From positions 26,908,001 through 26,972,000 of the forward strand of contig NC_073404.1 in NCBI RefSeq assembly GCF_028641065.1: a DNA stretch of 64,000 nt, written 5' to 3'. Positions 1,003 through 60,990 of the stretch are shown here, piece after piece. Every line of letters begins with the position of its first letter. Within the stretch, counting starts at the first letter, position 1. A program made the position numbers and the translations under genes. The stretch is from Leucoraja erinacea. Its lineage: Eukaryota. The notes under the pieces were generated by a model. That model searched no databases. It saw only the letters and a program-made list of their open reading frames with translations, and had not been told where the DNA came from.

Positions 1003-1182
1003 CGGAAGGAACTGCAGATGCTGGTATAAACTGAAAACAGAATAAAGAGCTGGAGTAACTCAGCGAGTCAGACAGCAACTCTGGAGAAAAGGAATAGGTG
1101 ACATTTCGGGTTGAAGAAGTGACCCAGCCCGAAACGTTATCTTTTCCTTTCCTCCAGAGATGCTGCCTGACCAGCTGAGTTA
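1003..1182. mobile_element. Penelope-like terminal-repeat fold-back (degenerate hairpin)
   Basis: Arms taactcagc...tttcggg and cccgaaacg...gctgagtta (1056-1182) flank a degenerate hammerhead core ttgaagaa...cccgaaacgtt. Confidence 0.7.
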
Positions 1183-1559
1183 GTACTTAAGTTTTCAGTT
1201 TTATTGTATTTTTAAGCACCGGTGAGAGGGTGAACAGTAAATACCCTCATCCATCAATTGTTTGCTGAAAATGGTATGGTGAAGAGAAAAAAAAGTGTTG
1301 TGCCCAGTGGAGGTATGTTTGTCCATAAAATTAAAGCCCAAAAATGTCTTGGAGAACCCGAACTGAGCCTAAGTATTGATAATGCTTTCCATACCCAACC
1401 ATCAATTAAATATATTCAGCAGTTTGGAAATGAACCACTCAACTTTCTGAAATGATACTTTCTTATTCTAAATAAAAATCCCGACTTGGAAAGAATACTG
1501 AGCTAGGCTGGCTCCCTATTGAGATTTCATTGGAAGATGCACCCAATTTGAACATACAA

Positions 1560-1840
1560 GGTAAAGGAAGCACCTTTAGAAAGGAGATGAGAGGGATTAG
1601 TTTGGTGAGAGGAGGGTGAATCTGTCGAATTCATTTTCATAGAAGGCTGTGGGAGACCAAGTCAATGGATATTTTTAAAGCGGAGAGTGATAGATTCTTG
1701 ATTAGTACAGGTGTCAGCGGTTATGGGGAGAAGGTGAGAACGGGGTTGAGAGGGAAAGATAGATCAGCCATGTTTGAATGGCAAAGTAGATTTGATTGGC
1801 TGAATTAGCTATTTCTGCTCCTTTAATCTATGAACTTCTG
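1560..1840 (+). mobile_element. CR1-type LINE 3' fragment
   Basis: Typical CR1 3' end sequence (gatagattcttgattagt...ggggagaagg...agatcagccatg), repeated elsewhere in the window (e.g. 35600-35790). Confidence 0.75.
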
Positions 1841-2624
1841 AACGTGACACGTTATTCATTCCCGATTGGCTGCCTCACTCGAGCCAGTCTCTAATGTATT
1901 GCTTACTACGGTGAACGACCAATTGAGAGAAATATGGAGTTTTGGTTTGCTCACATGGTGCACGATATGGTGACTTTTGAAATCATTCCCGCAAAAAATG
2001 ACTGGGAATATTTGCTAAAAGAATAAAACTACAAAAAAAAAAAACTTTAGGACTTGTATCTATTTACTCTGGAGCAATGAACTGCTAGAGGTCTATAAAA
2101 TAATGAAGGGATAGTTGATAGATTATTGCAATTTAACAACTTTGAGATACAAAGTAGATACGAATTCTAATTTTAAATTTGAGTTCACAAGTGTGGGGAC
2201 AAACAAAATGTGGTGGTTCTTCTCATACAAAAGAATTATTCACTGGAATGCATTACATTGTTTTGGTGGACGCTAACAATCTGGATACATCAACAGGAAG
2301 TTAGTGCAGGTCTTAACTGGAGCAGAGATCACATTATATAGAAGCCATGTGACTGTACAGGTAATACATGCTCCATACAATGAGCTATTATCACAAGAAT
2401 GTCAGGGCGAAATATCTCGAAATATTTTTTCCACCTTGTTGAAGTGCATTTTTCTGCCCTACCCTGGAGCATAGATGGTTGTAAGGGCAAAATGTTCCAT
2501 ACACTCTTTCACATGCTCTACATAGATTAACTTATTTCCAGTGAATAACTTCCTAAAATACTGAGATAATTTGCAATGTTATTTTGTTCAAAAACAAGCA
2601 ATTGTTGCTGAGAAAGTAATGCAC

Positions 2625-2686
2625 CTGATAATCTGCCCTTCCTCTTCTGGTGTAGCTGGTCTTAGACCAAGAACTATATGACATAT
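2625..2686 (-). CDS. USP32: USP32 coding exon (exon 11 equivalent), 62 bp
   Basis: ICHIVLGLRPATPEEEGQII(R); ctgcag / gtgcat. Confidence 0.96.
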
Positions 2687-3854
2687 CTGCAGATGGAAGG
2701 AGAAAATATCACAATTAACAGAAGTAGCAGCAGTTTTGTTGAGACAATTAAGCTCTCTTCAGCTCAGACTACTCTTCACAATAAACAACATTAGGATACC
2801 GACAAGTATCGAGGAACTGTACGGTTTAAGTACTTTTTCAATGACAATAGAACAGGTAAACATCGTGCGGGTGGCTCGTGAGATACTTGCTTATACTTGT
2901 CTAAAACATGGAAAATTTGTACAAAGAGGCAACGTTCAAATTAATTATTGCATTGATTATGCCAAAACTGGGGAACTGTGTACAGTTTTAGTCCCCAAAT
3001 TATACGAAGAATGTGATTGGATACAAGAGTCCCAAAGAGATTTAGAAGAATGTGGTAGAAGGTGCAGAATTCTACATTAATTAACATCAGTTTATATTGC
3101 AATTTTGTTTCTCTGCAATTTATTACTTAATTGATTTTGAATGCATTTGTAGTTTTGGTTCTGCTTTTGTAAAAATCCATATGGGAAAAAAAAATCAAAA
3201 AAAAATCATACAATTTCTTAGAGCCATACTCATGGGGAAATTAACATTTCAACTAACTTACACCATCTATACATATGCCACAGTAGATACACCAAATTAA
3301 TAATTTTGTCGGAATAATACTTTAAGTAATGATTCTGAATGTGCAACATGAGCAAAAGTTATGTTAGCAGTCCTTTCTAAGTGTTAGATTTTTGGTTACA
3401 TTTGATGCTTCTGCTCAAGAAATTGAACATGCAAGTACAAAACATTCACTAAACATGGAATATCAGGCATGCAGACTTTGTAGTTTCTGGAGTTTAACCT
3501 GTCAGAACAAGGATATTAGTTTAAAAAATCCACATTTTTTAAAATTCCAAACATCGAAAGTCATTTTTAAAAGGAATTTCAATCATCGCCAAATTTAGTA
3601 AGAGTAACCAGGGATCAAACCTGGTAGTTTCAATGATCTGAAACAAAATCCAGAATCCTAAACCAAAATACTGGTTTAATTACTTTGCAGAGAAAGTTCA
3701 TACAGATGTAGCATTGATCTTAACTATTTGATTCAGTACTACTGTGATCAATGCAATGACCATCAAACAGAAAGAATAGGAAGATATTATTCAAACACAC
3801 CTGAAAGATAAACAAGGAAGTGATTATTACAAAGTAGAGAACAGTAACACTAAC

Positions 3855-3938
3855 CTGAAATAGGAGATTAAGAAACTCACTGGCCAAAGCACTTTTAACA
3901 CCCCAAATCTGATAATCTTCTAGTGTCAAGTGTCCCTT
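3855..3938 (-). CDS. USP32: USP32 coding exon (exon 10 equivalent), 84 bp
   Basis: KGHLTLEDYQIWGVKSALASEFLNLLFQ; poly-T tract plus aacag acceptor, gttagt donor. Confidence 0.96.
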
Positions 3939-4254
3939 CTGTTAAAAAAAAAAAGTAATTCACAGAATATATTAAGAGCTAGAAATGTATGGGTAGACAA
4001 AATGCAAATTCCCAGTTTGATTCTTAGCTTTATCAAATATTAATAACTCAAGAAAGCAAAACGATGGACTATATTAAGACTTCACTTTTGCAATGAGCAC
4101 ATTTTAGTTTTTAAAAGATATGCATTTTGACAACTTTGGACTTTTATACATGCTAATTATAATAAAACGTCAATTCTTGTGTCACCGAAGGGGAAAAAAA
4201 ATAAGAAACCAAAATTAGGAAGAATTTTGTTACAATGCTATGGGAATGTCACGT

Positions 4255-4850
4255 TATAATTTGTTATGTTTTTATGTGCATCCTCCTCACCTGATTTTTT
4301 GCCCTTCTTTCAGCTCATCTGCTGTTGAGACCCTCATCTCTGCCTTTATTACTCTCGATTTAACTATTGCAGTGCACTCCTAGTTGGGCCCCTATACTCT
4401 TCAAACTTGTGGTCATTCTAAATTCTCTGTACGAAGTCCTGGCCACATATCACTTCATGCTTGGTGACCTAAATTGATTTCTTGCTCGCTTAAGGCTCGA
4501 TTTTAAAATCGGCATGTGTTTTCAAATTCCCCCATGATTTAGCCTTCTGCTTCTCTGCAATATCCTCCATCATTATTATAATCCTAAAAATGCCCGGGTT
4601 CCTTCATTTCTGATCTTAGAAATTCCTGAATTTAATGCTCCATCAATGGAGGAATTTCAACCAGCTGCAAATTATCTATGCTTTGGAGTTCTCTCCCTAA
4701 AACTAAAAAGGAAGCTTTTCTTTCCTCTAAAATACCACTTAAATCCTATCTTAATAATCAAACTGTTCATCAGCTGTCATGGTCTCCTAATATGGCATTC
4801 ATTAATATTTTATGTGACATGCTCTTGTGAAGTGCCTTGGAGTTAACGAT
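4255..4850 (+). mobile_element. L2-type LINE 3' fragment, decayed
   Basis: gagaccctcatctctgcctttattactctcgatttaactattgc resembles the L2 ETLIHAFITSRLDYCN motif; ends near gtgaagtgccttgg. Confidence 0.6.
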
Positions 4851-7030
4851 AGCAGTTCCTGTTAATGATTTTGAAAGTATGTCATTGACATATTTATTTC
4901 TTCTCACACTGATGTTGCCTGACAGTGAATTTTTCCATAACTTGTTTGTTGATCTAAATGGAATTTTCCTACTGAGAACAAAGCTCTGTGCATCTGCACT
5001 TAGAGTGCAGCATCGACTATCCCTGGATTATCACTTCCATTTTAGAAGACCAGAAAAATTAGTGTCTTTGATCCGTTCCGCTTTTAAATCAAATGTAAAG
5101 CAGATTGAAATTATATGGACGGTTTAGAGGGCAAGATTTAAAACCTCATCAAAATTTTATTCCTTGCATTGCATCCCGTTCCATTTAAGGATTACATCCT
5201 TCATTAGTTGTACCAACAGTGCCAAATGCTTTAAAACAAGCCTAATTGTGCACGCTTTTCCTGAAAGAGTTAGCACTTAACAAAAGGTTTTCACTGTACA
5301 TGTGACAATAAACTAAACTGAAACAATACGTTCATGGAATGTGGAAGTGAACATCACTTTGGGGACAAATAAACATAGGTAGGCCATCAATATTTATCCT
5401 TCATTTTGCATTATCTACACAATCTAGAAAAAAAGCATATTTTGGACTGGGGGAAGCTTTCATATAGTTGCTATTACATCTAACCAACAACTGAACAGTT
5501 TGCTGTAGTTATTTGGAGACAGCAATGCAATATTTGGTCCATTTGGCAACCTTGCATATTATTAATGGGAATGTTACTTAAATTTACCTAGGTAATAATC
5601 ACATTATGGTTACCACCCATCTTTTAGTGTCATAGCATTGTTCTTTTGCCTATCTGCTTTTAATCTTGCTTCTTGCATTTTGAAATGAGTGTTCATTGAA
5701 TGGAATGAGTGTTCATATTTTGTAATAATGTCCCATTTTCAACTGTGCCACAGCCAACTACATAACGCGAGAATACCTTAACAGTACAAGAATAAAGGAA
5801 AAATAGAAGCCAGCAAAAAAAAATTGAGCTTAAACTGTTGAAAACTGGAAATATCTACTTAATATGATCAAATATTACAGCCCAAAACCCAAACAAGTGG
5901 GCAGTGGTGCTTTTCTCCACAATATACCCCCTTTCAAGTAATACTGAAGTAATTCAAGAACTGCAGTAAGCTACATACTAATGTTTTTTTTTTATTATTT
6001 CAGGACCTGGCTGTCGCCGGCAATGCCAGTTCCAAATTGACCTTTTTATTACAAATCTTTTATTCTGCTAATATTTTAAAATTTTCTTCCATATTGCTCT
6101 GCCCCATGATCATTGAAATTGATACATCACATTTATTCTGTTAATCCACATCAAGACCTCCAATGGATTAAATTATTTCAGTTTTTTTTTTTAAGTGCCC
6201 TCTTGTTACATTTTCCTTCCCACGTCACGGAAAATGTTTTTAAAGTAAAATCTATTCCACAATTTCTTTTTAAAACTATCTTAGTTCCATTCAGAGATAT
6301 ATAATAAATAATTTGCCTTGCTCAGCATTGAAATATTTCACAAAGTGAACCTTTCATAATACAATTTCTGCATGCAAACAATTAGAGAAATGTACTGTGC
6401 AAATGAAACTAAACACATATCTGAACACACAACCTAATGCCATTTCAATTGAATAATTCACACCTACAAGTGTGGCTTTTAATAATGTATTATATGGCTT
6501 ATTCACCCAAGAACACAGAGATCAGTTTTAAGCATTATGAAAAAAATTGTTATCGAGCAGGTTTCATATACCTGGATTGACATCCACACCTTATTAAATC
6601 TCTCACTGGCTGTGAATCTAAATCACAACATGACGGCAGCCATCGAGAGCAGCAACTGATCCTTCACATTTGTCATGAGACCATATTATGATCTGCTGGT
6701 CTTTTTTTGGAGAAATATAGATCAAAGCTTTTTTTTGATCCAAGAGTCATTATAGCACCAATCATAAAAATAACTCACGTTCCAAATTGCTCTACCTCCT
6801 ATTGATTTATTCAAAATACTCCTTAATATGAGGTGCTAAAATGTTACATATTGTGGCTGTATTGGCAAGCTGAGATGTATCAGTTGTACACCCGATGGCT
6901 GTCATTGCCAAATGGAAGAACAACTGCTCAGAAGAGGTCTCCCCCTTCCCCCCACCCCATTTTAAATAACTTGATTAATTCATGTGTTGTTTGTTTTCAT
7001 GGACCTGTACTAGAAAGGATGTAGCCATAT

Positions 7031-7200
7031 GTTAGATAGAGTTAGATCGAGCTCTAGGGGCTAGTGGAGTCAAGGGATATGGGGAGAAGGCAGGCACGGG
7101 TTATTGATAGGGGATGATCAGCCATGATCACAATGAATGGCAGTGCTGGCTCAAAGGGCCGAATATTCTCCTCCTGCACCTATTTTCTATGTTTCTATGT
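7031..7200 (+). mobile_element. CR1-type LINE 3' tail
   Basis: gatcagccatgatc...gggccgaat...ctcctgcacctattttctatgtttctatg with terminal (TTTCTATG)n. Confidence 0.8.
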
Positions 7201-7685
7201 GTGCCTTATCCTCAGGGTAGCAAATAAATCCTTCATTAAGTAACAGGTAAAAATTAAAACAAATCTTTGCTACAAATAAGAGTAAGATGAATGTTCACTA
7301 ATTGGGGAAAGTTGTACTAAATTGTTCCATAGGAACATCAGCCTTGAATTTGGGCAATATTTATCTCAACAAATTTCAGTTGTGCATGACATCCATGTCT
7401 AAATAACAAATAATGTTTCATTTAACTGTGTATTTCATTAATAGCTTATTGATGCTAATATATACACTTTTTTAATTGGAATATCATTACAAATAATAAT
7501 GTATCGAGGCACTTCAACTGACATCTCCAACACACATTGGACACTGTTGTTCATTGACAGCCACTGGTAAAAACACACTGGGACCAAATCTAAAAGATCA
7601 CGTTTATTTTTATCCAAACTCAATTTCCAAAATCATTTGCAATATTATCAATGCAATACAAAATCAGTTTTCTAGAAAGACTTAC

Positions 7686-7748
7686 TTTGGTGGTATCATG
7701 TTTCTTTAAGATATGATTTACAATGTCAGCTGTTCCCATGTGAAGTTC
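7686..7748 (-). CDS. USP32: USP32 coding exon (exon 9 equivalent), 63 bp
   Basis: ELHMGTADIVNHILKKHDTTK versus recalled human ELHMDLSDIVEGILNAHDTTK; cttcag / gtaagt; phase 0-0. Confidence 0.93.
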
Positions 7749-7935
7749 CTGAAGAAAATGAAAAAAGTTAGAAATAAAAAGTTTTAACATGTGTCAGGTG
7801 AAAACACAAAAGTAGGGATGTTGTGCTACAGATAAAGTGTATGGGTGAAAGCACACCTGGTTTGCTGTGCACCAATTGATCTCCTTATTTAAGGAAAGAT
7901 GTTGATGAGTTGATCAGTTTGGAGATGGTTTACTG

Positions 7936-8616: not shown

Positions 8617-8648
<32 letters not shown>

Positions 8649-8688
8649 GGGGGGCAATGTCGTCCCCCCCCCGGGATTTCCGCCCCTG
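7936..8688. mobile_element. Non-autonomous hAT element with 8-bp TSD, inserted in a CR1 remnant (~7800-9240)
   Basis: Imperfect TIR CAGGCACAGAAATC / GATTTCCGCCCCTG; exact duplication GTTTACTG at 7928-7935 and 8689-8696; GC-rich interior with poly-G/poly-C tracts. Confidence 0.85.
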
Positions 8689-10079
8689 GTTTACTGGACT
8701 GATGCTTAGAATAGGAAGGTTGCCTCATGTAGAAAGATTGGACAAGCCTTGTAGCTCTGACATTTAGAAAAATAAGTGGCAGCCACCAAATCATACAAAA
8801 TTGTGAAGATAGACACAAAATAACTCATCGGGTCAGGCAGCGTCTCTGGAGAAAATTGGTAAGTGAAATCTTGGTTCAGGACCATTCTTCATACAAATCT
8901 CTGGATGTTCTTAATAGGATGTATATAAAGAAACTTTCCACTAGTGGGCGTAAAGAGAACAAGGGGTAAATGTAAAAAAAAAAACGAGTTATTCACTGAA
9001 GACACTGGCTTGGTAAATAATGCATCTCAAAGAGTTGCAAATGTTTAGAACACTCTGCCTCAAAGGACAGAGGATGCAGAGTTTAATATTGAATATTTTG
9101 AATACAGCTAATATGTTGAAAGTGAGGCAGACAGGGGATGAAAGGTTACCACGGATGGACAGAAATGCAGGGTTGAGGCAGCAGTGATATCAGCCATGTT
9201 TCTTATTCTACAGTGGTCTATTATTCTTGTAATCCATATGTTCATGCCCATGACATAATACTTCAAAGAGGTAGTTTGTTAATATAAAATAAAGTAACAG
9301 CTAAAGACCCAGTTATTTTCCACAAGACAAGATAAAGAATTTTGAATAACTACATTATTTTTGGTTTTAATTGTGAGAGTACAATGTTTGATTTGTATTC
9401 AATAAAAAAAAAAGTGTTGCTGGAGACTTAAATCGTTAGCAATATTTGTCTTTCTGCTAATAGAAGCTAAGATGGGATGTAGACAACAGAAATACTTTGT
9501 CACAGTAACAATCGGTTGACTTGCTTCCCTTGCTATTGTTAGAACGCCAAAAATGGGACCTGCACACCATTTAAATATATGGGTAAAAATGACCCTCAAT
9601 TCACTGTGGAAATCAAACAGAATTTATATAATTGTAGGAATTTTCCTTTTTTTGAAAGGTCCCAAACATTGTTGCTTTCCAATGAGAAGTGAAATAGTTG
9701 ACTAAGATCATTCTATTATTATTGCCTACCTTAAAATTTGAGTTCCATTTCAAATTAAGACAACTGAAAAGTAGCCTCTATTGTATAAGGACAAATGAAA
9801 AGTAGTCTCTATTGTATTGTGGAAGAGATTATACTTTTGCATTTTAGCCCAACCTGACTGCTGTTAGGGGAGCCAGCAACTTATAACCATATAACCATAT
9901 AACAAATACAGCTAACCGTCTAGAGACTCCAGGATCTGAGGTAGCTGTCACCACAGGTGGTGAGATTTTCCAGCAATGGACTCTGCGCCAGTCATCACAC
10001 AGCTTTGAGCTACACTGCTCACTCCAGCGACCCTGGAGGCAATCTCTCCACACTGGGCCATAGCCGATTGTTATCTTAT

Positions 10080-20630: not shown

Positions 20631-21708
20631 TGCTTCATCAGAAAGTAATTATAGAAACTATTAATCCTTTGTTCATGTTTAAATTAAAATCCTATTTTTG
20701 TGATTTGTTTCGCTGTTGGCTTATTTAGCCAAAATAAAACCCTCAAAGATTTAGAAAGCAAAAAAACAATATTGCATATTAGAATTATTCAAACATTTCT
20801 GCATCACATTTCAAACAGCTGGCATTTACCACCACTCAAAACTGGTACAAAAGGGACAGAACAAGTGATAGATTTAATCTGATGAAAAGGAGAGCATTCA
20901 TACATTGGTCAATAATGTTTCAGATCCATGTTCATAATTATAACCGGTTTTATACTCTGAAAGGCTAAACAATTTCAATAGCAGGCACTTATTCCAACCA
21001 TCCTGAAACTGGAGTTTTTCTTTTCCTTTTATAATAATGGAAGAAATGTTTATTGGACTGTATCAACTATTCTAAACAGCAGACAATACCACAGACAAAT
21101 GGCACCTAAACATTGTAAATACGGCACTACATTAAATTCAAATTATGTGTTATTATTTAGGTAATTCTAATCAAGGACCAGGTACAATAAGTGCATTTGA
21201 GAGACATTTAGGCTTAAAAAAAAGGCATGGAATAATATGGACCTAGTGAAGGCAAATGGGACAAAGTCAGCACGGACATGTGGTGAAGGGTTTATTGAAG
21301 TGCTGTACAACTGACTTTCAGCCTAATTTGGGGTTATCTGTTGAAGCACTTACACAAAGTTCTTTATCCTTGATCCTTCACACAGCTACTCAGAGATAAA
21401 AGCAATGTCATTTTATTTACAGCCACCAGGGAAATCAAACAGTATTAAGACGGAAGAATCATAATAGATTGGTTTGGAAGAGACGTACAACAGCTTAGCA
21501 GCTATCACAAACATCATAATTAACATTATGGGGAAACCTTCACAATGACTGTCAGAAGAAATACTTTGACTTATCCGTTACTTAGTGGTATAAAAGTTTA
21601 TTCTATAGTAAAGTCAGAGTTTAAGCCTGTTTAAGGGAATGGAATCAATAGTAATGTTAAAACAGAAGTAGTTATGGCCAACTCAAAACTGGATATTTGA
21701 TAATTAAT

Positions 21709-21803
21709 CTGAAGAAGGGTTTCGGTCTGAAACGTTGCCTATTTCCTTCGCTCCATAGACACTGCCACATTCGCTAAGTTTCTCCAGCACTTTTGTCTAC
21801 CTT
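21709..21803 (+). ncRNA. Minimal hammerhead ribozyme motif in a Penelope-like terminal repeat
   Basis: CTGAAGA-AGGGTTTCGGTCT-GAAA-CGTT matches the CUGANGA / stem II / GAAA core with palindromic ACGU stem III described for PLE hammerheads; followed by the PLE repeat body. Confidence 0.7.
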
Positions 21804-23444
21804 TTATTTGATAACTAATCCGAGTCAACTGATACTAGTAATGGAGTCATCAAGAAAAGCGTGGGTAGACACTTCAATGTTGATGTCAGTAAATAACACC
21901 ATATCTGAAGGTGATGTTGCCAAGAGATAGGAAGTAAATGAGGAATTGGAAAGGGTAAACATTTCAGGAAATTTGGCAGGTCGGGGAGTAGGGGCTAGGA
22001 AGTTACTGGAAATGATCTGGCTATGATCAGGTAGACAAGTCTGAAATCAGGCAAACACGAGTCAAGACTGGAAGATTGTTGGTTTGTCACATTAAAGTTG
22101 CAGAACCCATCCGGAAATAAGATAGGCATAGATTGGTGAATGCATACAGTCTTTTCTCCAGAGTTAAGGAATCAAGAACTAGAGGGTCTAGGTTTAAAGT
22201 GAGAGCAGAAAGATTTAATAGAAACCCGAGGAGAAATGTTTTCCATACTGAGGGTATATGGAGTGAGCTGCCAGAGGAAGTACATGGATAGGAGAGGTTC
22301 CGATAGGTACATCAAATGCAGGCAAATAGGGCTAACTTAGATGTGCATTTTGGCGAGTTGGGTGGAGAGGCCCGTTTCCATGTCCCAAGAGGTGTAGTAA
22401 TATGGATATTAGCTTAAATATTAGATCAATTTTTAAAAAAAATCAAATTTGAATAATGAAAGGTTTTGGCTGAGATCAAGATTCAAGAGTTTGTGCATTG
22501 TCCAGATAGATCTCGTGATGGATGACAAAAGCCAGCTGCATGCCAGTTATGCTCCGACTTGCATTCCTGCTACTCAATTTCAATCAAGTGAGAAGAATCA
22601 AGACTAATAACATTCATCATGGCGTCAGCTAGAAAGACATACAGTATTGATAGCGTGGTGTGTCAGTAACCCTTTGCAAATCTGTTTTGCTACCTTTAAA
22701 AAATTAAAAAGAATACACCTCAGGGTGCTAGCACTAGTGCAAGCCTTTGTTCCTTCACCCCTTTTAAATTTGCATCACGTTGCCTGTACGGTCTATCTTT
22801 ATCCTTCCTACAGAGGTAAATTTCCTGACGTTTCTGTGCTGAATTTCATTTGCCATGTTGTGCGAGTTTTCCTGTGGCCTTCGAGGTCAATTTCTATCTT
22901 CCTCCTTGTTTAATGCACTTCCAATTGCTAAGTCTATTACTGTTTCCATTAGTGTTCTATCCACCTTTAATCTCAAATTTGTGATTAATTCACATTCCCC
23001 TGAAGCTCAAATTTGGAAGTCACTTACTGTATAATGTACAGACATACCACGTGTCAGAATAAGCAACATCACAAACAAGCCTCAAAGACCTTTCTGTATA
23101 AGCCTTTTATGATATCAGGTGAGTTAATTTTCCTGTCGTCACAACATTTTATCTATTTCAACACTGTTGGAAATTTTAAAAATAGCATTTGTAGATATGC
23201 CATATTTGAAATCTCTTGCATGGCATAGATGTCAACATTTTACAAAGTAAAAAGTATTAAAATACCAGCACTAGTGCAAGCTCAAAACATTAATTCAATT
23301 GAGAGCTTTGAAAATCTGCTCGACTAACTTGTTTGGCTTAAGACTAAACTAGAATCCTATTGGAAATCAGATTCATTGACATGGTCCACAAAGTTTCCAT
23401 TACTCCGAACTAATACTTATTTTGTAGCAACAAAAATTTAGTAA

Positions 23445-31400: not shown

Positions 31401-31435
31401 GGAGAGTGACAGCAGAATACCACCATACAGAGAGA

Positions 31436-31624
31436 GGGTTACACAAAAAAGCTGGAGAAACTCAGCGGGTGCAGCAGCATCTATGGAGCGAAGGAGATAG
31501 GCAACGTTTCGGGCCCGAAACGTTGCCTATCTCCTTCGCTCCATAGATGCTGCTGCACCCGCTGAGTTTCTCCAGCTTTTTTGTGTAACCTTCAATTCTC
31601 CAGCATCTGCAGTTCCCTCTTAAA
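31436..31624. mobile_element. Penelope-like terminal-repeat insertion forming a perfect 154-bp palindrome, 15-bp TSD
   Basis: Arms 31437-31513 and 31514-31590 are exact reverse complements; CACCATACAGAGAGA duplicated at 31421-31435 and 31625-31639; interrupts an old CR1 remnant (~31340-32030). Confidence 0.9.
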
Positions 31625-32637
31625 CACCATACAGAGAGATCTGGGCATCCTCCTAGATCAAACAGAGGAATTTAGCATGCAGACACATTTGAAATCCAAA
31701 TGATTTGTCTTTATTGCAAAAATGATCGACTATAGGAGGAGGAGGTCTTGCCACAAGTGTATTGGTGAGATCATGCTTGGAATATTTTGTTTCTTTATTT
31801 GAGAAGCAATGTACATACATGCACCAGAGAGAGTTCAGAGGAAGTTACCAAGTTGACTACTCATGGTCTCATAATATTTTCAAGGCACAGGCAGATAAAT
31901 ATTTGACAAGGAAGGTTTGGAGGTTGTTGCCAGTAGATGGAGATGAAAAATCAGTAATACAGACCAGCCATTATCTTAATAATTGGGGGAGCAAAACCGA
32001 GGGGCTGAATGGTCTCATACTCATTCCGATTCATATTATAATACAAAATATAGATAACATGTTGCTATTGGGAAATGAGTATGATCGAGGACTAGGTGGA
32101 AGGTGATCAAGAATTGAATGAAGGTGATATGCAAAGAAGTGATGAGGAAAAAAATATTTTTATTTGTTAAAATCAAGAGGTGCTTAAGGTCTTTAATACC
32201 CTTACTGGGCAATTGTGGAGGTTTCACGTAGAATTCAAGAGGGCTGAATAACTATATGAAAATAAAAAATGTAGTTCTATGGAGAGATAGCATGGGGATG
32301 GGTCAAATTAGATTTATCTTGCATAAAACAGGAATGGACTTGGCAGGCTTAATGACAGCATTTTATGCCATATCCATTCTGTAATTATATGACAATTTAT
32401 CAGGCAAGTCACAAAGAGACTCAACTTCAGTGCAATAAGATGTTCGATATCTCTATTTGGGTTTAAGTACTATTTTGCACTTGCATTGTTTCATCCAAAA
32501 GATGTGCAATTGAACTTCCTGTGATAAAACTTGAAATAGCTTCTGCATACCAAAATTAAATTGAAGCTGCCAACCTAGACGCTCTGTGACAGAAGCTTCC
32601 ACTTTGTTTGGAAGTTGTTTAAAGTAATGGTTCATGC

Positions 32638-37315: not shown

Positions 37316-38559
37316 AAGTGTTTTTTGAAGTGAGAAGGTTAGTTCCTATTTATTTCACAAGGAAAACTCTATTCCATTTGTTATTTAAGGCTGCAATTAA
37401 TAGGAATGCATTTCCAGGTATTATAAAGATATACATTGTAAGGTGCAAAGGAGATCAGCACTTTGTTGCTCGTCACTGCAAAGATAAATACTGTAAGCTT
37501 AAAAATAAAATAACCAGCATGTACATGGGATTTACATGGTTAGTTACATGGAACCTAATTATCCTTGCCGAGTCAATATTAATTCTTCATGAAATGCACA
37601 TATAATTTCCTTTTTTCCTTTTTTAGATCGCATTAAAACACGCATCTATTTTCGCACTGTTAATCATTCAACATTGATATGGCCCATATGCATAGGCATT
37701 GGAAGATTACTCCATATTCTATTATCCATTTCATGGACCACCTCTTGCATGCTCGCACTACAAATTGTGTGACGATTAAGAACAAGACCAAAAATGTACG
37801 ATATAACTTTATTTATCCCAGGAGGGAAATTGATCTGCCAACAGTCATTAAAACTAAAAATACATGAAAAATGAAATTAAAGTCACGAATGGAAAGGATT
37901 GGGGATGTGCAAAGATTGGGGAGTGGGGGGGTGTCAGTCTCAGACTATCCCACGACAGAGGGGAGAGGAGTTGTACACTGCTACCGTAGAATTGGTGCTA
38001 GCGAAGCATCATTCTGCCAAATCACAATCAGTCAAGGAATCAGATGTCTGACAGAGGTTTTTAAAAGGATATTCAAAACACATGTAACTGATTAAAAAAA
38101 ATATCAGTAAAGTATAAAAAAAACCACAACAGTAAACTAAATCAGTAGAAACTAGGAACTGTAAATGCTGGTTTACAAAGAAAATGCTGGAGTAACTCAG
38201 CGGGTCAGGCAGCAAGCATCATGGAGAACATAGATAGGCGACTTCAGGTCAGGACCCTCCTTCAGACACGAGTTCAACACAGAGGATAAAGGTGGGGTCA
38301 GGGGGTGGGTTGGCCGATTGACATAAGTACAGAAAAAATAGAAAGTAAGAAACATTGAAGAGGTTTCTAAAACCACAACGTTTAAAAGGAAGGGGCAGGA
38401 GGGTTTGTGGTATTTGTCGGCTTGTTGTCACGCTGATAGTGAATGGAAACTGGGTTGTTGTACTTGAGAGGATGGAGGTGGCAGAATGTTGCACAGCAAT
38501 TACTATCTAAATTAACTTCAGAATTGCCGAGGCATATGGCAAGAGTGCTCGAGAATGTT

Positions 38560-39515: not shown

Positions 39516-39519
39516 ATGT

Positions 39520-40068
39520 GCAGACAGCACCTCCTCTACCCTCATCCACTGCATCAGGTGTTCCCGATGGAGCCACCTCAACTATGGAGACCAGGCGTAG
39601 ACGCAGCAACCATTTTGCCAACACTTACAAACCACTTTACCCCCGAGTTGTTAACCATTTCAACTCCTCTTCCCATTATGATCTTTGCCCTGGACCTCCT
39701 CCATTACCAGAGTGAGGCGACACACAAACCTGAGGAACAGCATCACATATTCCATTTGGGTAGCTGTATGAACACATAATTCTCCAATTTTAGGTAACTG
39801 CTGCAAAACATCCCCCAACCCTCCTTCTTCCCCATTGCTTCCTTTCTTCCCCCCCAGCTCTCTTCCCTATGCACACCCAATTATCCCCTCTCCCTCAATC
39901 CTTCTTCTAGATTCACAATCCTTTTGTCTCATACCTCCTGTCTTTTCATTGCTGGCCTTTGTCCAACCATCTGCCTATCAAAATCCACCTGTTACCTGCC
40001 AGGCTTTGTCCTGCCCCTCTTCACTTCCAGCTTTCTTCTCCCACCCCTTAACAATCAGTCTGAAGAAC
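39520..40068 (+). mobile_element. Penelope-like element 3' end (GIY-YIG remnant and UTR)
   Basis: Fragments GETRRR..NHF, VNHFNSSSH and QSEATHKPEEQHHIFHLGS; pyrimidine-rich UTR ending at cagtctgaagaa (first half of the hammerhead core). Confidence 0.75.
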
Positions 40069-42612: not shown

Positions 42613-43840
42613 GTCTTAAAAAGTGTAAAGTTCCTTCAGCCCTCTGAGTTTGTCATAATAACAGTTACGATCTCAGAAATTATGAAAATATGCTCCTGAT
42701 AATTATTCGATATAATTAAATTCCTGCACTTAAATCACAAGAGATACATGTTAGAGCAACTGAGCACATTCAAAATCGTGAAATTTTATAAAGTTATCGA
42801 CATAAAGTTAATCATTTCATTTTTGAGAAAAGATTAAGAATAACAAAGGCAACACCTAGTTAAACAGATTTTTTTTTTTTTAAAGAAACAACTCCTAAGA
42901 CAGAGCATTAAACTTTGTTAAATGGAAGTTGGCTTTAAGTACATTATCAGAGTGCCTGATGAAATAACAATCCATGCAAGAATGTGTTTGACCAACATGG
43001 CTTGGGATAAACATTAAATGTGATGATACAAATTTCACCAATATGCACCATCACAAAAATATAAACCTATTATTGACATAAGATAGCACACTCCCTCCCA
43101 ATAATAAAGGCAGTTACCTCTTTCAAGTACAATGACAAGGTCAGCAAGCCTCGCATGGAAATACACCAAAACTATCCCATTTATAGTCTCTAGAACCTGG
43201 AAATTTAGATTGGTTTATAATTGTTAAATGTTCTAAGAGCTCCACTATTAATGAAAAACTAGCATTTATTTGCACATCCACTAGCTTGAATGCCTGAAAG
43301 AATTCTTAACTGGCTTGTCTGTAGCCGAAAACAAGAGATCATTGTATCAAACATTTCAGCTTAAATCGCTATCCTATTCAGTAACAATTATGAATAGGTT
43401 ATACATTTACTAACCTACAAAGAAAATGTTTAAGTACATTTGAGAGGCTGCATGGGAATCTCTTGGGAAGGGTGAGATAAGTGGAAAGAAAATTGCTTTT
43501 CAAAAGAAAAAAGATTAAAAAGGAGTAAACACCATATTCTTCAAATAAACTGAATTTGAGAGTCTGGAACGATCTTGTGGAGTATCTCACTAATACTTAA
43601 TCAAGAATATTGTGAGGAGAACATCCGCTGTTATAATGGAAGGAGCCAAACATGAAATGCTTGAGCTCTTACATTAACAAATACAGAGACTGAAGTCAGC
43701 AACACCCTGCTCCTCCTCTACAATCTGCACTAAAACAACCATTTCAGCTGCTGAACATTTCTACCGTTTTACAACCATTCTGACTGTAAAACCGCCAGAA
43801 AATCCAATCTTGCTGCACAGAAGTGCATTTGAATGTTTAA

Positions 43841-44141
43841 GAAGGAACTGCCGATGCTGGAAAATCGAAGGTACACAAAAATGCTTGAGAAACTCAGCGG
43901 GTGCAGCAGCATCCATGGAGCGAAGGAAATAGGCAACATTTTGGGCCGAAACCTTTCTTCAGACTGATCGGGGGGTGGGGAGAGGCCGGGAGAAGAAAGG
44001 AAAAAGGAGGAGGAGGAGCCCAAGGGCTGAGGGAGAGGTAGGAAGGGGAGGAGACAGCAAGGGCTAACAAAATTGTGAGAATTCAATGTTCATGCCACCA
44101 GGATGCATCTGAGGTGCTGTTCCTCCAATTTCCGGTGTTGC
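43841..44141 (-). mobile_element. 5'-truncated Penelope-like insertion with 11-bp flanking duplication
   Basis: Minus strand encodes RKLEEQHL and GMNIEFSQF, then CTGAAGA-AAGGTTTCGGCCC-AAAA (mutated hammerhead) and the terminal repeat; TGAATGTTTAA at 43830-43840 and 44142-44152. Confidence 0.82.
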
Positions 44142-44837
44142 TGAATGTTTAATCTGTCAAAGCTCCAATTACCAATTAAAAACCTCTGGTTATAAAAGAC
44201 GTACATTTTAACAGATTTAAATTATAATTTGTTCAAAGTTGAATGATTTTTACAATAGTTGAGAATTATCGATATATACTATCAAAAGTCTTGTCTTGTT
44301 TGACTGTCTGTCTGTGAGATCACGGAACTACACCAAAACGGTACACACTAGCGCAAAATTTGTTGCAGAATCTTACTCAGCTTTTACCCGTGATTGTTAG
44401 TATCAAGTTTCTTCACATTTGGTGTTATATTTCATGTTATTAATATTTAAAGTTTAAAAAAAGCCAACTTTGAAAATAATAACTGTCTGTGAGTGGGACT
44501 TTTCCAGCAGCTTCTAGTGATTTTGTCACAATGGCATCTCACAGTCTTCCATTACAGAAGCTGTGAGAGTTGACGGAGTGGGGGATGGGAGGAGAAGAAA
44601 TGTTATTTAAACATTGTCTTTAAACATGGGCGGAGCACCAAGGCAAATTCCTTGTATGTGAATACTTGGCCAATAAACTTACTTACTTACTTTAGTGGGG
44701 GGAGTGCGGAAGGGGAGAGGTGAGCGAGGGAGTGACTGAGGGAAGGGAAAAGGAGAGGGAGGGAGAGGTGACAGAGAGACAATGGGATCAGCAGCATCAA
44801 GGGGAGTAAGGAGAGAGTGAGATTTTTTGCCTGCACC

Positions 44838-50999: not shown

Positions 51000-51374
51000 C
51001 TGTCCCTCAACTTACCATAACATTTATAGTCACCAGCACTCTTGCTTCTTATTGAAAAAAGTAACACGCTCACACTCCAAACACTTCCTTAGTACAGTGC
51101 AGAATCAAAGCACTGCAGATGCTGGTTAATACACAAAAGGACACAAAGTGCCGGAGTAACTCCGTAGGTCAGGCAGAATGTCTGGAGAACACAGACAGGC
51201 GACGCTTTGGATTGAGTCCCTTCTTCAATGAATTACAGCGATCAGTGAATACAGTGCTCTCAATACAGATATTAAAGATATGGAGGAAAATCAGTTTAGT
51301 CATGCAATGCCTGATCAATTGCACCAACAAACTTTGCTCTCATGTCAATTTATAGTCATCATTCTGGACCAAAT

Positions 51375-51720: not shown

Positions 51721-51729
51721 AAACCCTAC

Positions 51730-53402: not shown

Positions 53403-53541
53403 AGGGCTTGTCCCACTTTGCGATTTTTTTCGTGACCGCGGAGCGTCAGTGACTGACGCCCTTTAAAACCATCATTGACGCACCACAGTTGCCTAAATTA
53501 TTATTATTATTTTTTTTAAATCGCATAGTGGGACAGGCTCT
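53403..53541. mobile_element. PIF/Harbinger-type MITE, copy 4 (short, copy-2 subfamily)
   Basis: AGGGCTTGTCCCACT / AGTGGGACAGGCTCT; interior resembles 23445-23668. Confidence 0.75.
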
Positions 53542-55029
53542 TTAAGGGAACAACAGCAACAGAACAATTTGCAGCGGTGTCGAGCGCCAATCCGCTGCCT
53601 GAGCTGCTGGTTCACAAACAAGCAGCAACTCCACAGGGCAAGGCAGGGAACAAGGATAAGGCAGGAGCTCTCTGAGAAACGCTGGCACAGTTTGCATCAG
53701 GCTGTCCGCTGTCTACATCAGCCAAGCTTTCCTTCGCTTACCAAGCCGGGCAAAATGACTCGGCTTTTAGGTTGCCCGGCGGGACTTTAGGTGGCCATTG
53801 GCACCCGGGTAACCGTTAATTTCGAGCCTTGCATTGACTTGGCCTGTACAGCCATCTGTGGCAATGAATTCCACAGATTCATCACCACTTTTCTGAGGCT
53901 ATGGCCTCTTGGCCTAGACTCTCCCACTCATGGAAACATCCTCTCCACATTCACTCTATCCAGGCCTTTCACTATTTGGTACGTTTCAATATGGTCCCTT
54001 CTCATCCTTCTAAACTCCAGCAGGTAGAGGCCCAGTGCTTTCAAACACTCATCATTTGTTAACGTAATCCTCTTCTAGACCCTCTTATCACTTGGTGAGG
54101 CTTCTCTCCTCTGGTAACCCATCCCACTGTAATGTGACTGAAATACCAACTCATTGCTTGAGGATCTATATTTAATGGTCTTGGTATGATCCTGCATCCA
54201 AATGAAATGGATATGCCTGGACAAACTGTGTACCTTCAGTTTTCTAATTGGTATAATATGCAAATAATAGCAGAATGAAACACCAAGACATTTATGTCAA
54301 AACACTGTGGGCCTTCAGCATTTTAGCAGCTGCAGAAGACAAATGCTTCCATTTGCCTCCGGTTAATGCTCTTCGGATGCATTTTAGCAGATGGTTTCAT
54401 GAAAACCATGATACATTCCACTACTCGTGACTTTAAGTGGCATAAGGAACACAAAAAAATGAGAAAGGAGCATGCAATCTATTAATGTGTAGTTTGAAGC
54501 TAATCGGTTATTGAAAACATGCTATGCAACTATTAAATCAGTCATTGCACAAGGTATTAAACATGACCATTCTACCATTTAATTTGACGGAAACACTAAA
54601 GATTCATGCTGTGGTTTTTAAAATTAAAATAAGTTCACATTCCGTTCCTTGGGAAATGCTGCTCATGGCAGCAATTAAGAGGTCTTCCAAGACTGCCAAT
54701 GCAGCTTTAAAATCAATCATGAGAGTCGTAATCTGCTGAGGTCTAGATCTGTGTCATTTAGAAATTATGATACAGTCATAGAGCATGGAAACAGGCCCTT
54801 TGGCCCAACTTGTCCCACCATATCCTAAACCCGTTCTATCCATGTACCCGTCTAAATGTTTTTTAAACGTCCTGCTTCAACTATCTCCAACTGGCAGCTC
54901 ATTCCATACACCCACCACCCTCCGAGTGTGAAGGAGTTATCACTCAGGTTCCTATACAACTTGCTCTGGCAACTGTACCTGGGCAAATGCTAAAGACCTG
55001 TGTGGAATAACTGGCTGGAGTATCTTCAT

Positions 55030-56260: not shown

Positions 56261-59200
56261 ACACAAACAAACAAAAGTAGACAACCAAAACACAACTTTG
56301 ACACTATAAATCCCATTATAAAGAAAGCAAGTTGCCTCTTACTTGAAAAGCATAACGTAGTGTGCACACGAGAATTTATCTGATCTGAGAGCTGACAAGA
56401 CTATGTTTAGAAAGTTATTTAAGGCAGGTCTTGCAGCGCAAGGAGCTGTCCACAACTGAATGCTGCAGTTTGGCACTAAGATCCAGCACTGTGTGCTTAG
56501 CTGCTTTTCTGAAGCCCGAATGTAACTCTCAAAGTGGATCGATTGGGAAAGACTAATTTAAGCTCTCTACTGGAGAGTCTTGATCCATGTTTAAAAATCC
56601 TTGAAATATTTGCTCAGAAATGTACGCAAAGGAAAACTGAAGGAATGCTGAAGTAACAAATGGAAAGACACGACCTCTGACAAAAATGGAACATCCTTTA
56701 TTAAAAATCAAATTTTCAAACACACTTATATATTTGATATAAACATACAAAGAACAACAAACCTGTGCCCTCAATCGCCACAAACCGTCATAAATTGTTT
56801 GGGTTTATCCATGAAGAAAATGGGCGCGTGAGAACCCAACAGTTCTGTGCCAACCTCGTAAGTAAATTTGTTTTTGCTTTTCTTCCCAGCACATGCTGAC
56901 ATACTTTCCTAAATGCAGCACGGTTCTATGTCAACCTTCCGATGTGCACAAAACAGTTAAAGCGCGCTACATGTTCAGGTCCCCAAGTAAGATTCCCACA
57001 AAACAATATTCCTTACAGAAAGGAAAGAGAAAGCCGTACTTCACATACACTCAAAGTGCACCTGATTCCACAAGAATTAGCACGCACACCAGAGGCTCTG
57101 GGGATTCTTAAAGAGATGCTTAGCACAAATAACCTTCTGCTAACATCTAGCGATAGCAAGTGAGGAATTAATAGGGAAATGAACACAAGTTACATATGCA
57201 TCAGCTACAGGTGCACACATTCTTATCTTGTATGAGCTACATAAGAAATTAAACTCGTTAGTGGGATTACTTTATGATAGATTGCTGAAGCTTCCCACAT
57301 TACATAGCCAAAAAAGTGCAAGCCTGATGTAGAACAGAGTGGGGACTTGTAGTTACTCACTGGCCACCAAGGGTCTCACAATGACTACATTCTACAGAAA
57401 CCTTGCGGGACAAAGCATAGATAAACAAGGAACTGCAGATGCTGGTGTATAAAAATAAAGACACAAAGTACTGGAGTAGTTCAGCAGGTCAGGCAGCATC
57501 TCTGGAAAACATTTATAGTGATGATTGGGACAGGACATTTATTCATAGCTTAGATAAAGTTGTACTTGTTAAAGCCTTACACTCTGAGGTCTACTATTTT
57601 AAAATCATTCACTTTTGACCTCCTGAAGCTACAGGATTATTTTTAGATGTTTGTTTCATAATCTTTTCAACTGTCCAACTAAATGTCCCCAAAGAGATGC
57701 CTGACCTTGTGCAAAATGCACCCACAATCCCTTTACAAGATGAAGATATTGTGAGAGACAGGATCATAATATGAACAGTAAACAAAGTATGTTTACTGGT
57801 CATATGTACTGGAACTGTGAAACACTTGCGCGCTGCAGCTTTTTACAGCCACTAACCCCGACAATTCAAAATATCAGTGATAAAAGCTTTTCAGATATGC
57901 ATGACTAAAAATATCACCATTCGCATGCGACCACAGCAATCCATGAAGCACTCCCTTAGCAGTTGAATAGCTTGGTGCTTCATATGTAACTATCCTGTAA
58001 TTCACTTCATTTAATTGTTTGAAACTCTTAATTTGCAGGAAACGGGCCAAGTGTATACAATAAATATCAGTAAATGGAAGTACAGGATGAAATAACACTT
58101 GAACCATTTCCAGGAGTGTCACCTTCTACTCAAAAACCTTTTACGTAACAGAACTCGATTCAGTACTAGGCACATGCATTGCACATGTTCCTCTTCACAA
58201 TTGTGTTACAGCATTAAACAAAAAGCTTTATTTTCTACTTTTTCCTAACCACAATTTTAAAGAGCTACCCTATTGTCAACAACAATATTAATCTAGAGCT
58301 TCCAGGATTCCCGTTTCCAAACAAGAGTTTATTCCTTACTGAATTAGAAAAATAAAACATTCAGAAAGTATCCAGCCACTACAATAAGTAAAATAAAGCC
58401 AAATTAGTATGTATAGAGCTTTTATACAGATAAATGACCCATTTGTACTTCTGAGACCATTGTCAAACAAGATTTTTCACCATACGAGGATGGTCAGATA
58501 CGAGGATGACAGACTTGCTTAATAGATGTTTGAGGGAACCCCAAAGGAGACAGAGGTAGAAAGATGAGGCTTGGAGAAGAGAATTTCAGAGATTAGTGTC
58601 TAACCAGCTGAAGATTAGGCCATCAATGGTAAGGCAATTAAAATCAAGGATGAAACATAATTTGAAAAGTGGAGCTTGCAGCTGATGCAAGGTCCTGATG
58701 ATCTAGTCCTGATGCAGCACCTGACCCAAATATTCACACATAGTTTTTCCCTCCACTTGACTGCCACGTTCTTTCATCAATTCACTTTTGCACAAGGTAA
58801 ACAAAAACACAGGGGTGACTTTGCTGAAGCTTAGCCATTCTTCATCAACCCGATTGATGCATGAAATTATGATGCCTAACTTCTCACTGGAACATTACCA
58901 AGCTCACTTTTGAAGTTTTTTTGTGTCGTCTCGTGAGGATCCATGTAGTGCCCATGGGCATAAAGTTCAGTCATTTGCACATCAATCTTCTCCCTCCAGA
59001 ATGATATGTTTGCAGATTATGCAAATATCAGGATTCCAATTGCAAACTAACTTTTGTCACTCTGACTAATGAGCTTGGTTCCACCATCGTTGAGCTTTCT
59101 CCTTTTCATATATCCACAAGTCACAACGCATGAAAAAAAAAGAGAAACAATAACACAGCAGCACAAAATCCCTCAATTTTTTACATCTCACTGTTTTGTT

Positions 59201-59419
59201 ATATTTCGTCCTATTATTTCCTGCCAAATCTTGTCCTCCATTTTCTTTCACTTCTCCAGTTTAGTTCTGAAGTGCTTCCAGTGGTCTGCTGACCATAGCA
59301 ATTCAACAACGATGAGCGGCTTTTCTCCAAATTCTCAGAGATAGTAAATTGCAAATATGACCTTAATTTAAGACCTACATTCTGATCCTAATATAATGGT
59401 ATTCCAGACGTTTGAAAAT

Positions 59420-60990
59420 GAGATTTGGGCACAATCAACATGGATTTATAAAAGGAAATATTGTTTGACTAATCTGTTAGTGAGTTTGAGGTTGTACAAA
59501 ACGGTCAGGAATTAGCATGTACAGATGGAAAAAAAAGAATAAAAGATAGAGAGACTGTAACCAGCAGGATACTGCAGGGAATGGTGATGGGACCTCAATT
59601 GTTCACAATCTGTATCAACAATTTGGATGAGAAGACTATGCACATTGTATCCAAGTTGGCTGATAATACAAGGTTAGGTGTTGGTGTGAGCTGTGTGGAG
59701 GTGGTGAATCGGCAAGCTTGTGATAAAGAGAATATAATATGTAAAAATATTAATTTATCAACTGCCAGAAAAATAGAAAGGCAGATTATTTTGTTTAAAA
59801 AGGTAAGTAAATTGAAAGGTGTTGGCATCCAGGTACTCCAATGTCTTTGTATACAATTTATTTCAACTTAACTTGCAGGTTCGCCAAGCCATTAGGAACA
59901 CAAACAGTGAGTTAACTTTTACTGCAAGAGAAATTGAGTACAAGAGTTGATGTTTTCTGCTAACTACAGCCACGATGCATTGGGCATACTGTGTGCACGA
60001 AAAGTCTTTTTACTTGGGAGAGATTGCGCTTGGAAACAAGTGCAGCAAAGGTTCTGCAGATCAATTCCTGGGAAGGTAGGATTGTCATACAAGGAGAGTG
60101 AAAACAGACTATCTCATACTTTTGAGTTTAGAAGAATGTGAGGTGATCTCACTGAAGCACACAAAAGTCTAAAGGGCCTGTCCCACTTACGTGTCCTTGG
60201 CACGCAAATTACGCGACCTCGTGGTCGCGTGGTAATTTCATTCAACCGCACAGCCGTCTGGAGTGCATGACGTTATTTGAAGATGGACGCAAAATGCCGG
60301 AGTAACTCAGCGGGATCAGCAGCATCTCTGGTGAGAAGGAATGGGTGTGTTTCGGGTCGAGACTCTTCTTCAGTCCGAAAGAAGGGTCTTGTCCCGAAAC
60401 GTTAACCATTCCTTCTCTCCAGAGATGTTGCCGGTCCCGCTGAGTTACTCCAGCATTTTGTGTCTATCTTCAATTTTCTTGGCCCCGCTCTGGGAGTAGA
60501 AGTGGGGGCGGATCCGGACCGCAACGGCCGTGAGCCCCAGGCTGAGCTCGACGATCGTTTACCTGCTTCTGCTGCTGTTAGAGGTGAGACATGGGTCTTG
60601 GGCCTGTCCCGCTTCGGCCATCAGTTCCGCGATAGGCCGTTGGCGAGCGAAGATTTTGTTCGCTACAAAAATTTAGGAGCCCCGCGTGATGTTGTGCACA
60701 ACTACATACCCCTCCGCATTTCTCAGTGGGACCTTCCACGGGCGACCATACGATGCCCGCGCGCCTCAATGAGACCACAAGGTCGCGTAATTTGCGTGCC
60801 AAGGAAACTCAAGTGGGGCAGGCCCTAAGACTTTGTCAGGCTCGATACACAATTTGTTTTCCTCTTGCTGGGGTATCCAGAACAAGGGGACAATGTTTCA
60901 AAATCAGAGGCTGGCTTTTTATGACAGATAAGGAATTTCTTCAAAGGGTTGAAGTATCGTTGGAATTCATCTTTCTAAAGAGTTGCAGAG
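59420..60990 (+). mobile_element. Old CR1 LINE fragment split by MITE copy 5
   Basis: GPQLFTICINNLD..SKLADNTRLG, then RGDL.E..K and FPLAGVSRTRGQ on either side of the MITE. Confidence 0.75.
60173..60826. mobile_element. PIF/Harbinger-type MITE, copy 5, carrying a PLE hairpin
   Basis: ~55-bp inverted termini starting AGGGCCTGTCCCACT; TAA at the left junction and an overlapping TAA at the right junction; internal PLE fold-back at 60277-60473. Confidence 0.85.

Follow-up and report, generated by a model that had tools for sequence, protein, structure and literature searches.

We analyzed 64,000 nt of the Leucoraja erinacea genome (NCBI RefSeq assembly GCF_028641065.1, contig NC_073404.1, positions 26,908,001 to 26,972,000 of the forward strand), referred to here as the window. 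It contains three fold-backs (hairpins 1 to 3) and a series of single pieces of one short repeat, the terminal repeat of an endonuclease-bearing Penelope-like element (PLE), which carries a predicted hammerhead ribozyme motif (Table 1). The 5′ ends of the PLE copies, here and across the genome, cluster at the front edge of that motif. Repeat positions are numbered from the C of CTGAAGA as 0. As the original prediction for this DNA had it, the three fold-backs differ in arm divergence, come from at least two sequence subfamilies (two stem-II types, GGGT-TTCG-GCCC and GGGT-CTCG-ACCC), and invert inside the motif or at its front edge. The three turn points are all different and lie inside a 22-nt zone. 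Hairpin 2 turns at a perfect palindrome in helix II, both arms ending at +17 within the native inverted repeat GTTTCGG-C-CCGAAAC, and hairpin 3 turns at the native repeat TCAG-T-CTGA (-5 to +3). A target duplication was looked for at hairpin 1 and none was found; hairpin 3 has none of its own.

Five solo pieces had also been predicted to stop at the motif. Four do so, at 21709, 38267, 51228, and 8892, with starts at -2 to +1. The fifth, at 40068, has the opposite polarity: its upstream part is kept, and everything beyond +7 is lost. Three window copies missing from that list start near -222, at +6 to +10, and at +36 to +39.

Table 1. PLE-derived features of the window (window coordinates; signed numbers are repeat positions; ORF, open reading frame)
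Feature	Position	Strand	Remarks
Hairpin 1, old head-to-head PLE insertion	1003..1182		arms 1056-1113/1125-1182, 58 nt, 83% identity
Hairpin 1, long arm with tail	1003-1113	minus	5′ end near +15
Hairpin 1, short arm	about 1112-1182	plus	5′ end near -2..+1
Hairpin 2, young complete insertion	31421..31639		arms 31434-31513/31514-31593, 80 nt, 99% identity
Hairpin 2, target duplication	31421-31435 and 31625-31639		15 bp
Hairpin 2, short arm	31437-31513	minus	3′ end near +95
Hairpin 2, long arm	31514-31625	plus	3′ end +129, tail of about 34 nt
Hairpin 3, PLE-derived fold-back	60277..60473		arms 60277-60344/60406-60473, 68 nt, 90% identity
654-bp element with terminal inverted repeats (AGGGCCTGTCCCAC...), carrying hairpin 3	60173..60826		TAA on the left; right flank one base off
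Solo short PLE copy (-1..+95)	21694..21820	plus	flanking 16-bp duplications 21694-21709 and 21805-21820, one mismatch
Solo copy, old	38154..38267	minus	starts at -2
Solo copy, old	51107..51228	minus	starts near +1
Solo copy, decayed	8805..8892	minus	starts near +1
Old copy with ORF end and pyrimidine-rich spacer	39690..40068	plus	stops just past CTGAAGAA
Longer copy, through the hammerhead into the GIY-YIG end	43830..44152	minus	5′ end near -222; 11-bp duplication
Solo copy downstream of the hammerhead	57420..57509	minus	starts near +36..+39
Arm of a PLE copy	62951..63038	minus	starts near +6..+10; adjoins longer plus-strand PLE piece, ORF end 63199-63394

We measured the distribution of 5′ ends in an unselected sample of 140 stretches of 10 kb, taken at even steps with content ignored (1.4 Mb of the 2.19-Gb genome). 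The 509 arms in this sample were detected via the region downstream of the ribozyme; detection is therefore independent of the motif, but the recorded 5′ ends are limited to +51 or less. For a single-subfamily analysis, 89 arms of one subfamily (from the sample plus the first 30 exact core matches on contig 1) were aligned to the subfamily's own upstream sequence as reference; 30 GG-selected loci form a biased set and were kept out of the rates. Among the 89 arms, 58 end at -12 to +12, 21 farther upstream, and 10 downstream, with the mode at -2 (10 arms). The per-base ending rate is 0.071 at -5 to +4 and 0.033 at +5 to +12, on a background of 0.003 at -13 to -250 and 0.002 at +13 to +23, which spans helix II and GAAA (2 events in 887 nt at risk). 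Across all subfamilies (221 arms), the rate is 0.070 at the peak vs. 0.003 to 0.009 elsewhere, apart from 0.020 at +26 to +28. Only this last analysis left out a tandem array at L100 (4921-5390), which inflates the +41 to +48 bins where it is kept in. The array is a small satellite without hammerhead, of about nine 40- to 45-nt units from +41 to +89 of the repeat.

Whole-genome counts of exact matches sharing a common 3′ end trace the same edge: 16,331 reach 0, 13,484 reach -2, 10,454 reach -3, and 6,777 reach -6. After a rough correction, ∼30% of the copies that reach -2 end there. In the 1.4-Mb sample, 124 of the 156 arm ends of 78 contiguous hairpins lie at -10 to +27. The clustering of 5′ ends is real, and its edge is sharp; breakpoints are strongly nonuniform along the repeat and pile up at the motif, so the uniform spread that would have spoken against the original prediction is absent. 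Two other sources of such a pattern were rejected. Differing upstream spacers could mimic cut ends, an artifact excluded by comparison with 26 subfamily references, by the single-subfamily analysis, and by target duplications abutting the -2 edge. A low-complexity block in the pyrimidine tract was discarded with ending rates inside the tract at background.

The identity of the repeat is clear from its longer copies, which run upstream through a pyrimidine-rich spacer (88 to 232 nt in 25 references) into the end of a GIY-YIG frame. An 852-aa frame at locus L171 matches RVT_1 (E 8.8e-6) and GIY-YIG (E 0.0065), and L004 matches GIY-YIG (E 0.0012), all below the Pfam curated cut-offs; DKG and CCHH-type motifs are visible in the translations. 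In locus L181, an inverted repeat is followed by a repeat copy, the ORFs, and another repeat copy; the unit measures about 4.1 kb, and the first ATG lies beyond the tail, at +164. Partial tandems forming a pseudo-long terminal repeat (pseudo-LTR), the inverted 5′ copy of L181, and the ∼34-nt tail of hairpin 2 agree with the published layout of endonuclease-bearing PLEs, which in the passages concerned comprises a pseudo-LTR, an adjacent inverted 5′-truncated copy, a 30- to 40-bp tail, and a target duplication (PMC8557442; PMC3846280). Translations of L004 and L009 have a C-X4-C-X2-C linker before the endonuclease that fits the CX2-5CxxC given as a feature of the Neptune clade (part of PMC8557442), and the PLE protein has a Neptune-type Cys linker. 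The predicted derivation of the hairpins from a retroelement is borne out by the frame with reverse transcriptase (RT) and GIY-YIG domains and by the L181 layout. Most insertions hold only 95 to 135 nt of the repeat, and extrapolation from the 1.4 Mb gives roughly 800,000 arms and 120,000 hairpins genome-wide.

Several further PLE structures were seen. The ORF1 region of L181 (4100-4400) contains a GC-rich tandem repeat encoding a GPDPDLPGIAA-type peptide repeat. A near-full-length copy at L179 (2037) begins at +132, just beyond the tail, and is preceded by a short duplicate of its start. L188, L189, and L190 are head-to-head pairs of long copies, with arms of >900 nt each and one long and one short 3′ end. 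In the window, a 225-aa open stretch at 52335-53012 (plus strand) resembles the PLE RT-thumb/linker region and is an older internal fragment.

The motif was predicted to be a hammerhead core, and it has the minimal type I anatomy defined for metazoan PLEs (part of PMC4209133): CUGANGA, an extra base, helix II with G10.1-C11.1, GAAA, a palindromic 15.2-16.2, and an NUH triplet. Motifs with this putative ribozyme anatomy number 119 in the 1.4 Mb vs. 2 in a shuffle. Among the 119, helix II pairs in 98 to 107, the extra A is present in 109, U16.1 in 107, and H17 is not G in 116. Helix II has 4 bp, and helix I only 2: pair 1 forms in 54/57 (U-A in 34, U-G in 20), pair 2 in 57/57 (its 5′ base being fixed by selection of the set), and pair 3 in 3/57. 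The predicted cut falls at +27/+28, after GUU or GUC. An Rfam scan of the window gave only generic hairpin matches, all under the gathering score, and no hammerhead match at E<=5. A type III topology, with its cut placed behind the AUC at -4, was rejected by eye, since helix III is unpairable and one subfamily lacks the triplet.

Close arm pairs in the 1.4-Mb sample (n = 111) are head-to-head in 76 cases and same-strand in 31; there are 94 head-to-head neighbors, 78 of them contiguous. The arms use two preferred 3′ ends, a long one at +129 and a short one at about +95. Among the 65 classifiable of the 78 contiguous hairpins, 51 pair long with short, 13 short with short, and 1 long with long (chi-square p 3e-6). 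Solo copies (n = 353) use both ends, 188 the short and 127 the long. We also compared 31 hairpins of subfamily A and 84 solos, sets that include loci picked by similarity or pattern. In these partly selected sets, 29/31 hairpins are long plus short with unequal arms, and target duplications of 9 bp or more flank 26/31 hairpins (range 9 to 16 bp) and 43/84 solos. Minor alleles are common to both arms in 32/45 cases vs. 9.1 expected.

The joints are varied. Solo 5′ joints comprise 19 with microhomology, 23 with an insertion, and 1 blunt; hairpin junctions have either 1- to 4-nt overlaps or short inserted stretches, a part of which seem by eye to be copies of neighboring sequence, and the 31 subfamily A hairpins have 24 distinct junction strings. 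We read the hairpin junctions as products of polymerase-theta-type end joining. The exact stem-II turn occurs in 1,735 copies genome-wide, and the ribozyme stems are inverted repeats that supply the microhomology for a minority of junctions. L139 and L244 lie in one target sequence inside other repeats, with different junctions, and a target is likewise shared by L011, L018, and L159; these shared targets suggest endonuclease hot spots.

Hairpin 3 has a history of its own. It lies in a 654-bp host element, and the same composite (junction, extra A in the core, and host) recurs at four unrelated sites in the 1.4-Mb sample; the extra A is in the core of the plus-strand arm. These four copies are among the 78 contiguous pairs counted above, and extrapolation gives ∼6,000 composites genome-wide (95% range 1,700 to 16,000). 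The host has terminal inverted repeats, dispersed copies with differing flanks, and no ORF (no frame of 150 aa or more within it), as expected of a miniature inverted-repeat transposable element (MITE). Its flanks are TAA/TTA-like in most copies and imperfect in several, and it is a candidate PIF/Harbinger-type MITE. Hairpin 3 would be an old PLE product that was later multiplied inside an inverted-repeat element. The three hairpins had been called independent: this stands for their origin but not for their placement, since hairpin 3 arrived inside another mobile element. Further short elements lie at 451-755, 23433-23680, 36264-36619, and 53356-53588 of the window; their terminal or internal inverted repeats are of the GGGCCTGTCCCAC type, a sequence motif with 48 occurrences in the 1.4-Mb sample. 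The window also has a decayed inverted repeat at 28009-28959, whose arms of about 190 bp each enclose a CA-rich stretch and an N run.

The original prediction had further taken the hairpins for a recurring class of non-autonomous, MITE-like elements, and this did not hold as a rule. In a comparison of 81 hairpins, junction and flanks agree together in the five hairpin 3 copies alone; the other shared flanks come with different junctions, as would be expected of separate insertions into repeats. Hairpin 3 excepted, the hairpins lack the marks of MITEs, with unequal arms, 9- to 16-bp duplications, and no families united by one internal junction. They are mostly one-off insertion products. It is most improbable that they descend from a few non-autonomous masters, such as a retroelement-derived MITE or short interspersed nuclear element, with inherited junctions. 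Such descent holds for the five hairpin 3 copies, and a few junction types do recur. However, it is at odds with the junction variety and with L139 and L244, and the commonest junction has its native centre on the long or the short arm, with different subfamily alleles. Variable duplications and unequal arms are foreign to MITEs, and hairpin 3 itself spreads via its host's termini, not its own.

With slightly more confidence than doubt, we favor the reading that the accumulation of 5′ ends at the hammerhead's front edge comes from RT running off the start of the element RNA there, and not from a ribozyme cut. The endonuclease would nick both target strands about 15 bp apart, and each nicked 3′ end would prime at one of two internal start sites in the transcript's 5′ repeat. 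The cDNAs, copied from one RNA or from RNA of one source, would each stop at the RNA 5′ end near -2/-3, inside the initiator-like TCAGTCT. Host end joining would trim up to about 20 nt and then join two cDNAs head to head into a hairpin, or one cDNA to the target as a solo copy, and the inverted repeats of the ribozyme fold would lend microhomology for this step. The long copies would come from priming in the 3′ repeat, with RT then passing through the motif. A transcription start near -2/-3 fits the sharp edge, the background rate upstream, and a copy at L221 that starts at -4 and continues beyond the tail into the start of ORF1. The -2 site coincides with TCAGTCT, with a splice-acceptor-like tract ending in CAG, and with the outer base of helix I. 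In the parts of the anole PLE account that bear on this, the protein cuts and extends both strands and starts at two internal RNA sites matching the tail, and cleavage is dispensable in vitro (PMC11167929).

A fuller version, tentative and as a whole more doubted than believed, would place the transcript start on the first helix I base; both target strands would be primed by a dimeric enzyme at the two tail-flanking sites of one 5′ repeat. The ∼120,000 hairpins would then be frozen intermediates that reveal the start site and explain the tail and inverted pseudo-LTR of all such elements, and a DNA MITE would have picked up one product and amplified it several thousand-fold.

Several observations weigh against run-off at an RNA start. 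None of the listed carriers is recorded as RNA, and four RNA runs of a related species, from two studies, gave no pile-up of read starts or ends, embedded short copies swamping the signal. The mode is a G at -2, whereas the A expected of an initiator would lie at -3; a G derived from the cap makes up a minor class at most (-3 counts: G 1146, T 962, C 922), and many G cases are microhomology by eye. Ends also fall at -4 to -7, 21/89 arms pass -12, and in the window itself the copy at 43834-44142 passes through the motif and reaches -222. In L181, the upstream repeat extends to -407. The arm-shared alleles fit fold-back copying or later homogenization equally well, and position -2, as the predicted outer base of the 2-bp helix I, may have a structural role. 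Finally, in Drosophila virilis a 75-bp intron that ends at helix I lies downstream of the start, according to the sections concerned (PMC2377424; PMC4209133).

The last point would also suit a longer RNA on which RT is blocked as it reaches the front edge of the motif, either by a bound protein or by element protein holding the folded ribozyme, with joining as above. The 120-nt pyrimidine tract with CAG resembles a 3′ splice site, the most frequent end, -2, falls on the AG boundary as well as on the outer base of helix I, and 21/89 arms go past the site. The D. virilis intron ends at the 5′ end of helix I (PMC4209133, in part), and the anole ribozyme is described as cleaving only with bound protein (PMC11167929, in part). 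However, a folding block is expected on the 3′ side of the helices, where the rates are at background, and a stall on folded RNA is therefore unlikely; background rates in the pyrimidine tract argue that low complexity is not the cause. Nor did we find a spliced genomic form (0/109 ORF ends with a core within 45 nt, overlapping loci included) or a matching splice joint among the 10 joints listed from the four RNA runs, results on which intron splicing at CAG was rejected. We consider a block unlikely overall. Less likely still is fold-back self-priming, in which cDNA or antisense RNA snaps back at a short inverted repeat of the ribozyme and copies itself; the endonuclease would then resolve the hairpin so that the tail stays with one side. 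For rotifer PLEs, this was put forward on the basis of palindromes found where copies meet head to head (in part of PMC3846280), and the genome-wide stem-II turns and shared minor alleles would agree with it. Yet the exact stem-II junction is found in only 6/31 subfamily A hairpins, many others having insertions or 0- to 1-nt overlaps. Moreover, solo copies without a hairpin end in the same zone, and the second arm ends at about +95, a site used alone by 188 solo copies.

The original prediction held that the ribozyme site itself sets the end. Self-cleavage, as a dimer, would then make the template's 5′ end, a reading in keeping with the minimal-hammerhead anatomy, with the 3/89 arms of the single-subfamily analysis that end at +28, and with the all-subfamily rate at +26 to +28, about twice that alongside (0.007 to 0.009). 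However, it predicts ends at +28 without the core, and the main peak lies ∼30 nt upstream of the predicted cut and retains the whole core. Whole-genome purine-at-boundary counts in subfamily A gave 695 at +28 vs. 1013 at the control +32, whose pattern is 4 nt shorter. Of 30 loci at +28, 19 lack upstream continuation, some being internal deletions; the +32 count may mix true ends with point changes. These counts show no genomic footprint of cleavage in subfamily A, and without an excess at the predicted cut, self-cleavage does not set the main end. Hairpin 3 multiplied with a broken core, and in the anole account, as far as it concerns the ribozyme, mutants insert normally in vitro and no RNA-seq reads begin at the cut (PMC11167929). 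Self-cleavage as the main cause of the ends is largely refuted, and we give it hardly any credence.

The way PLEs construct their inverted ends and tails and the function of their hammerheads are stated as open questions in the relevant parts of two accounts (PMC8557442; PMC11167929). Hundreds of thousands of dated insertion products give base-level predictions on this mechanism: that two priming sites work in pairs, that the nicks are staggered by ∼15 bp, that the template ends at -2/-3, and that cleaved RNA is left unused. Annotation tools should not label these hairpins MITEs or microRNA precursors, and the MITE-borne hairpin 3 represents a second route for the spread of a retroelement fold-back.

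Inverted PLE ends, tails, hammerheads, opposite-strand hammerhead pairs, and paired start sites are already published; for the clustering of PLE ends at the hammerhead edge, we found no report in a search that closed journals and supplements lay outside. The hairpins resemble complex insertions of endonuclease-bearing PLEs in their head-to-head inverted copy, tail of about 34 nt on one arm, target duplications, partial tandems, and junction palindromes (PMC8557442; PMC3846280). Unlike the published insertions, they mostly consist of 95- to 135-nt repeat pieces with 5′ ends within a 25-nt zone, and the passages concerned report no end clustering. The motif shares with the minimal type I hammerheads of metazoan PLEs CUGANGA, the extra base before helix II, G10.1-C11.1, GAAA, the palindromic 15.2-16.2, and a short helix I (PMC4209133). 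The parts of that account consulted describe mostly single dispersed motifs, mention opposite-strand pairs 100 to 700 bp apart, and do not relate insertion ends to the motif; here, the motif is recognized from sequence alone. PAc, a Poseidon PLE of the green anole, is similar in having two internal RT starts that bracket the tail, cutting and extension of both strands, and a hammerhead about 100 to 150 nt upstream of the starts, dispensable in vitro (PMC11167929). It differs in that its ORF begins in stem II, whereas here the first ATG is at +164 and the linker is of Neptune type; 5′ ends and hairpin formation are untreated in the parts concerned. Non-LTR retrozymes are likewise non-coding and PLE-derived with a type I hammerhead, but, as described in part of the report, they form head-to-tail arrays with a full hammerhead per unit, unlike the head-to-head pairs or solos here, usually without the upstream repeat part (bioRxiv 10.64898/2026.07.22.740005).

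Head-to-tail tandem units, which define retrozymes, do not prevail here, with 76/111 close pairs head-to-head and none of the three window hairpins tandem. In L1 twin priming, two target ends likewise prime and are joined by microhomology, but its cDNAs derive from different segments of the RNA, whereas the two arms here derive from one and the same stretch. Minus-strand strong-stop DNA of LTR elements is a short cDNA run-off at the RNA 5′ end, unlike our case in that there is no tRNA primer and no sign of strand transfer here. The host of hairpin 3 resembles PIF/Harbinger-type MITEs with captured sequence in its terminal inverted repeats and mostly TAA/TTA-like flanks, but its cargo is a retroelement fold-back. 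The clustering of ends at the hammerhead edge is thus no new system or class of mobile element, but a real and quantifiable pattern in a known one that provides a handle on the PLE mechanism.

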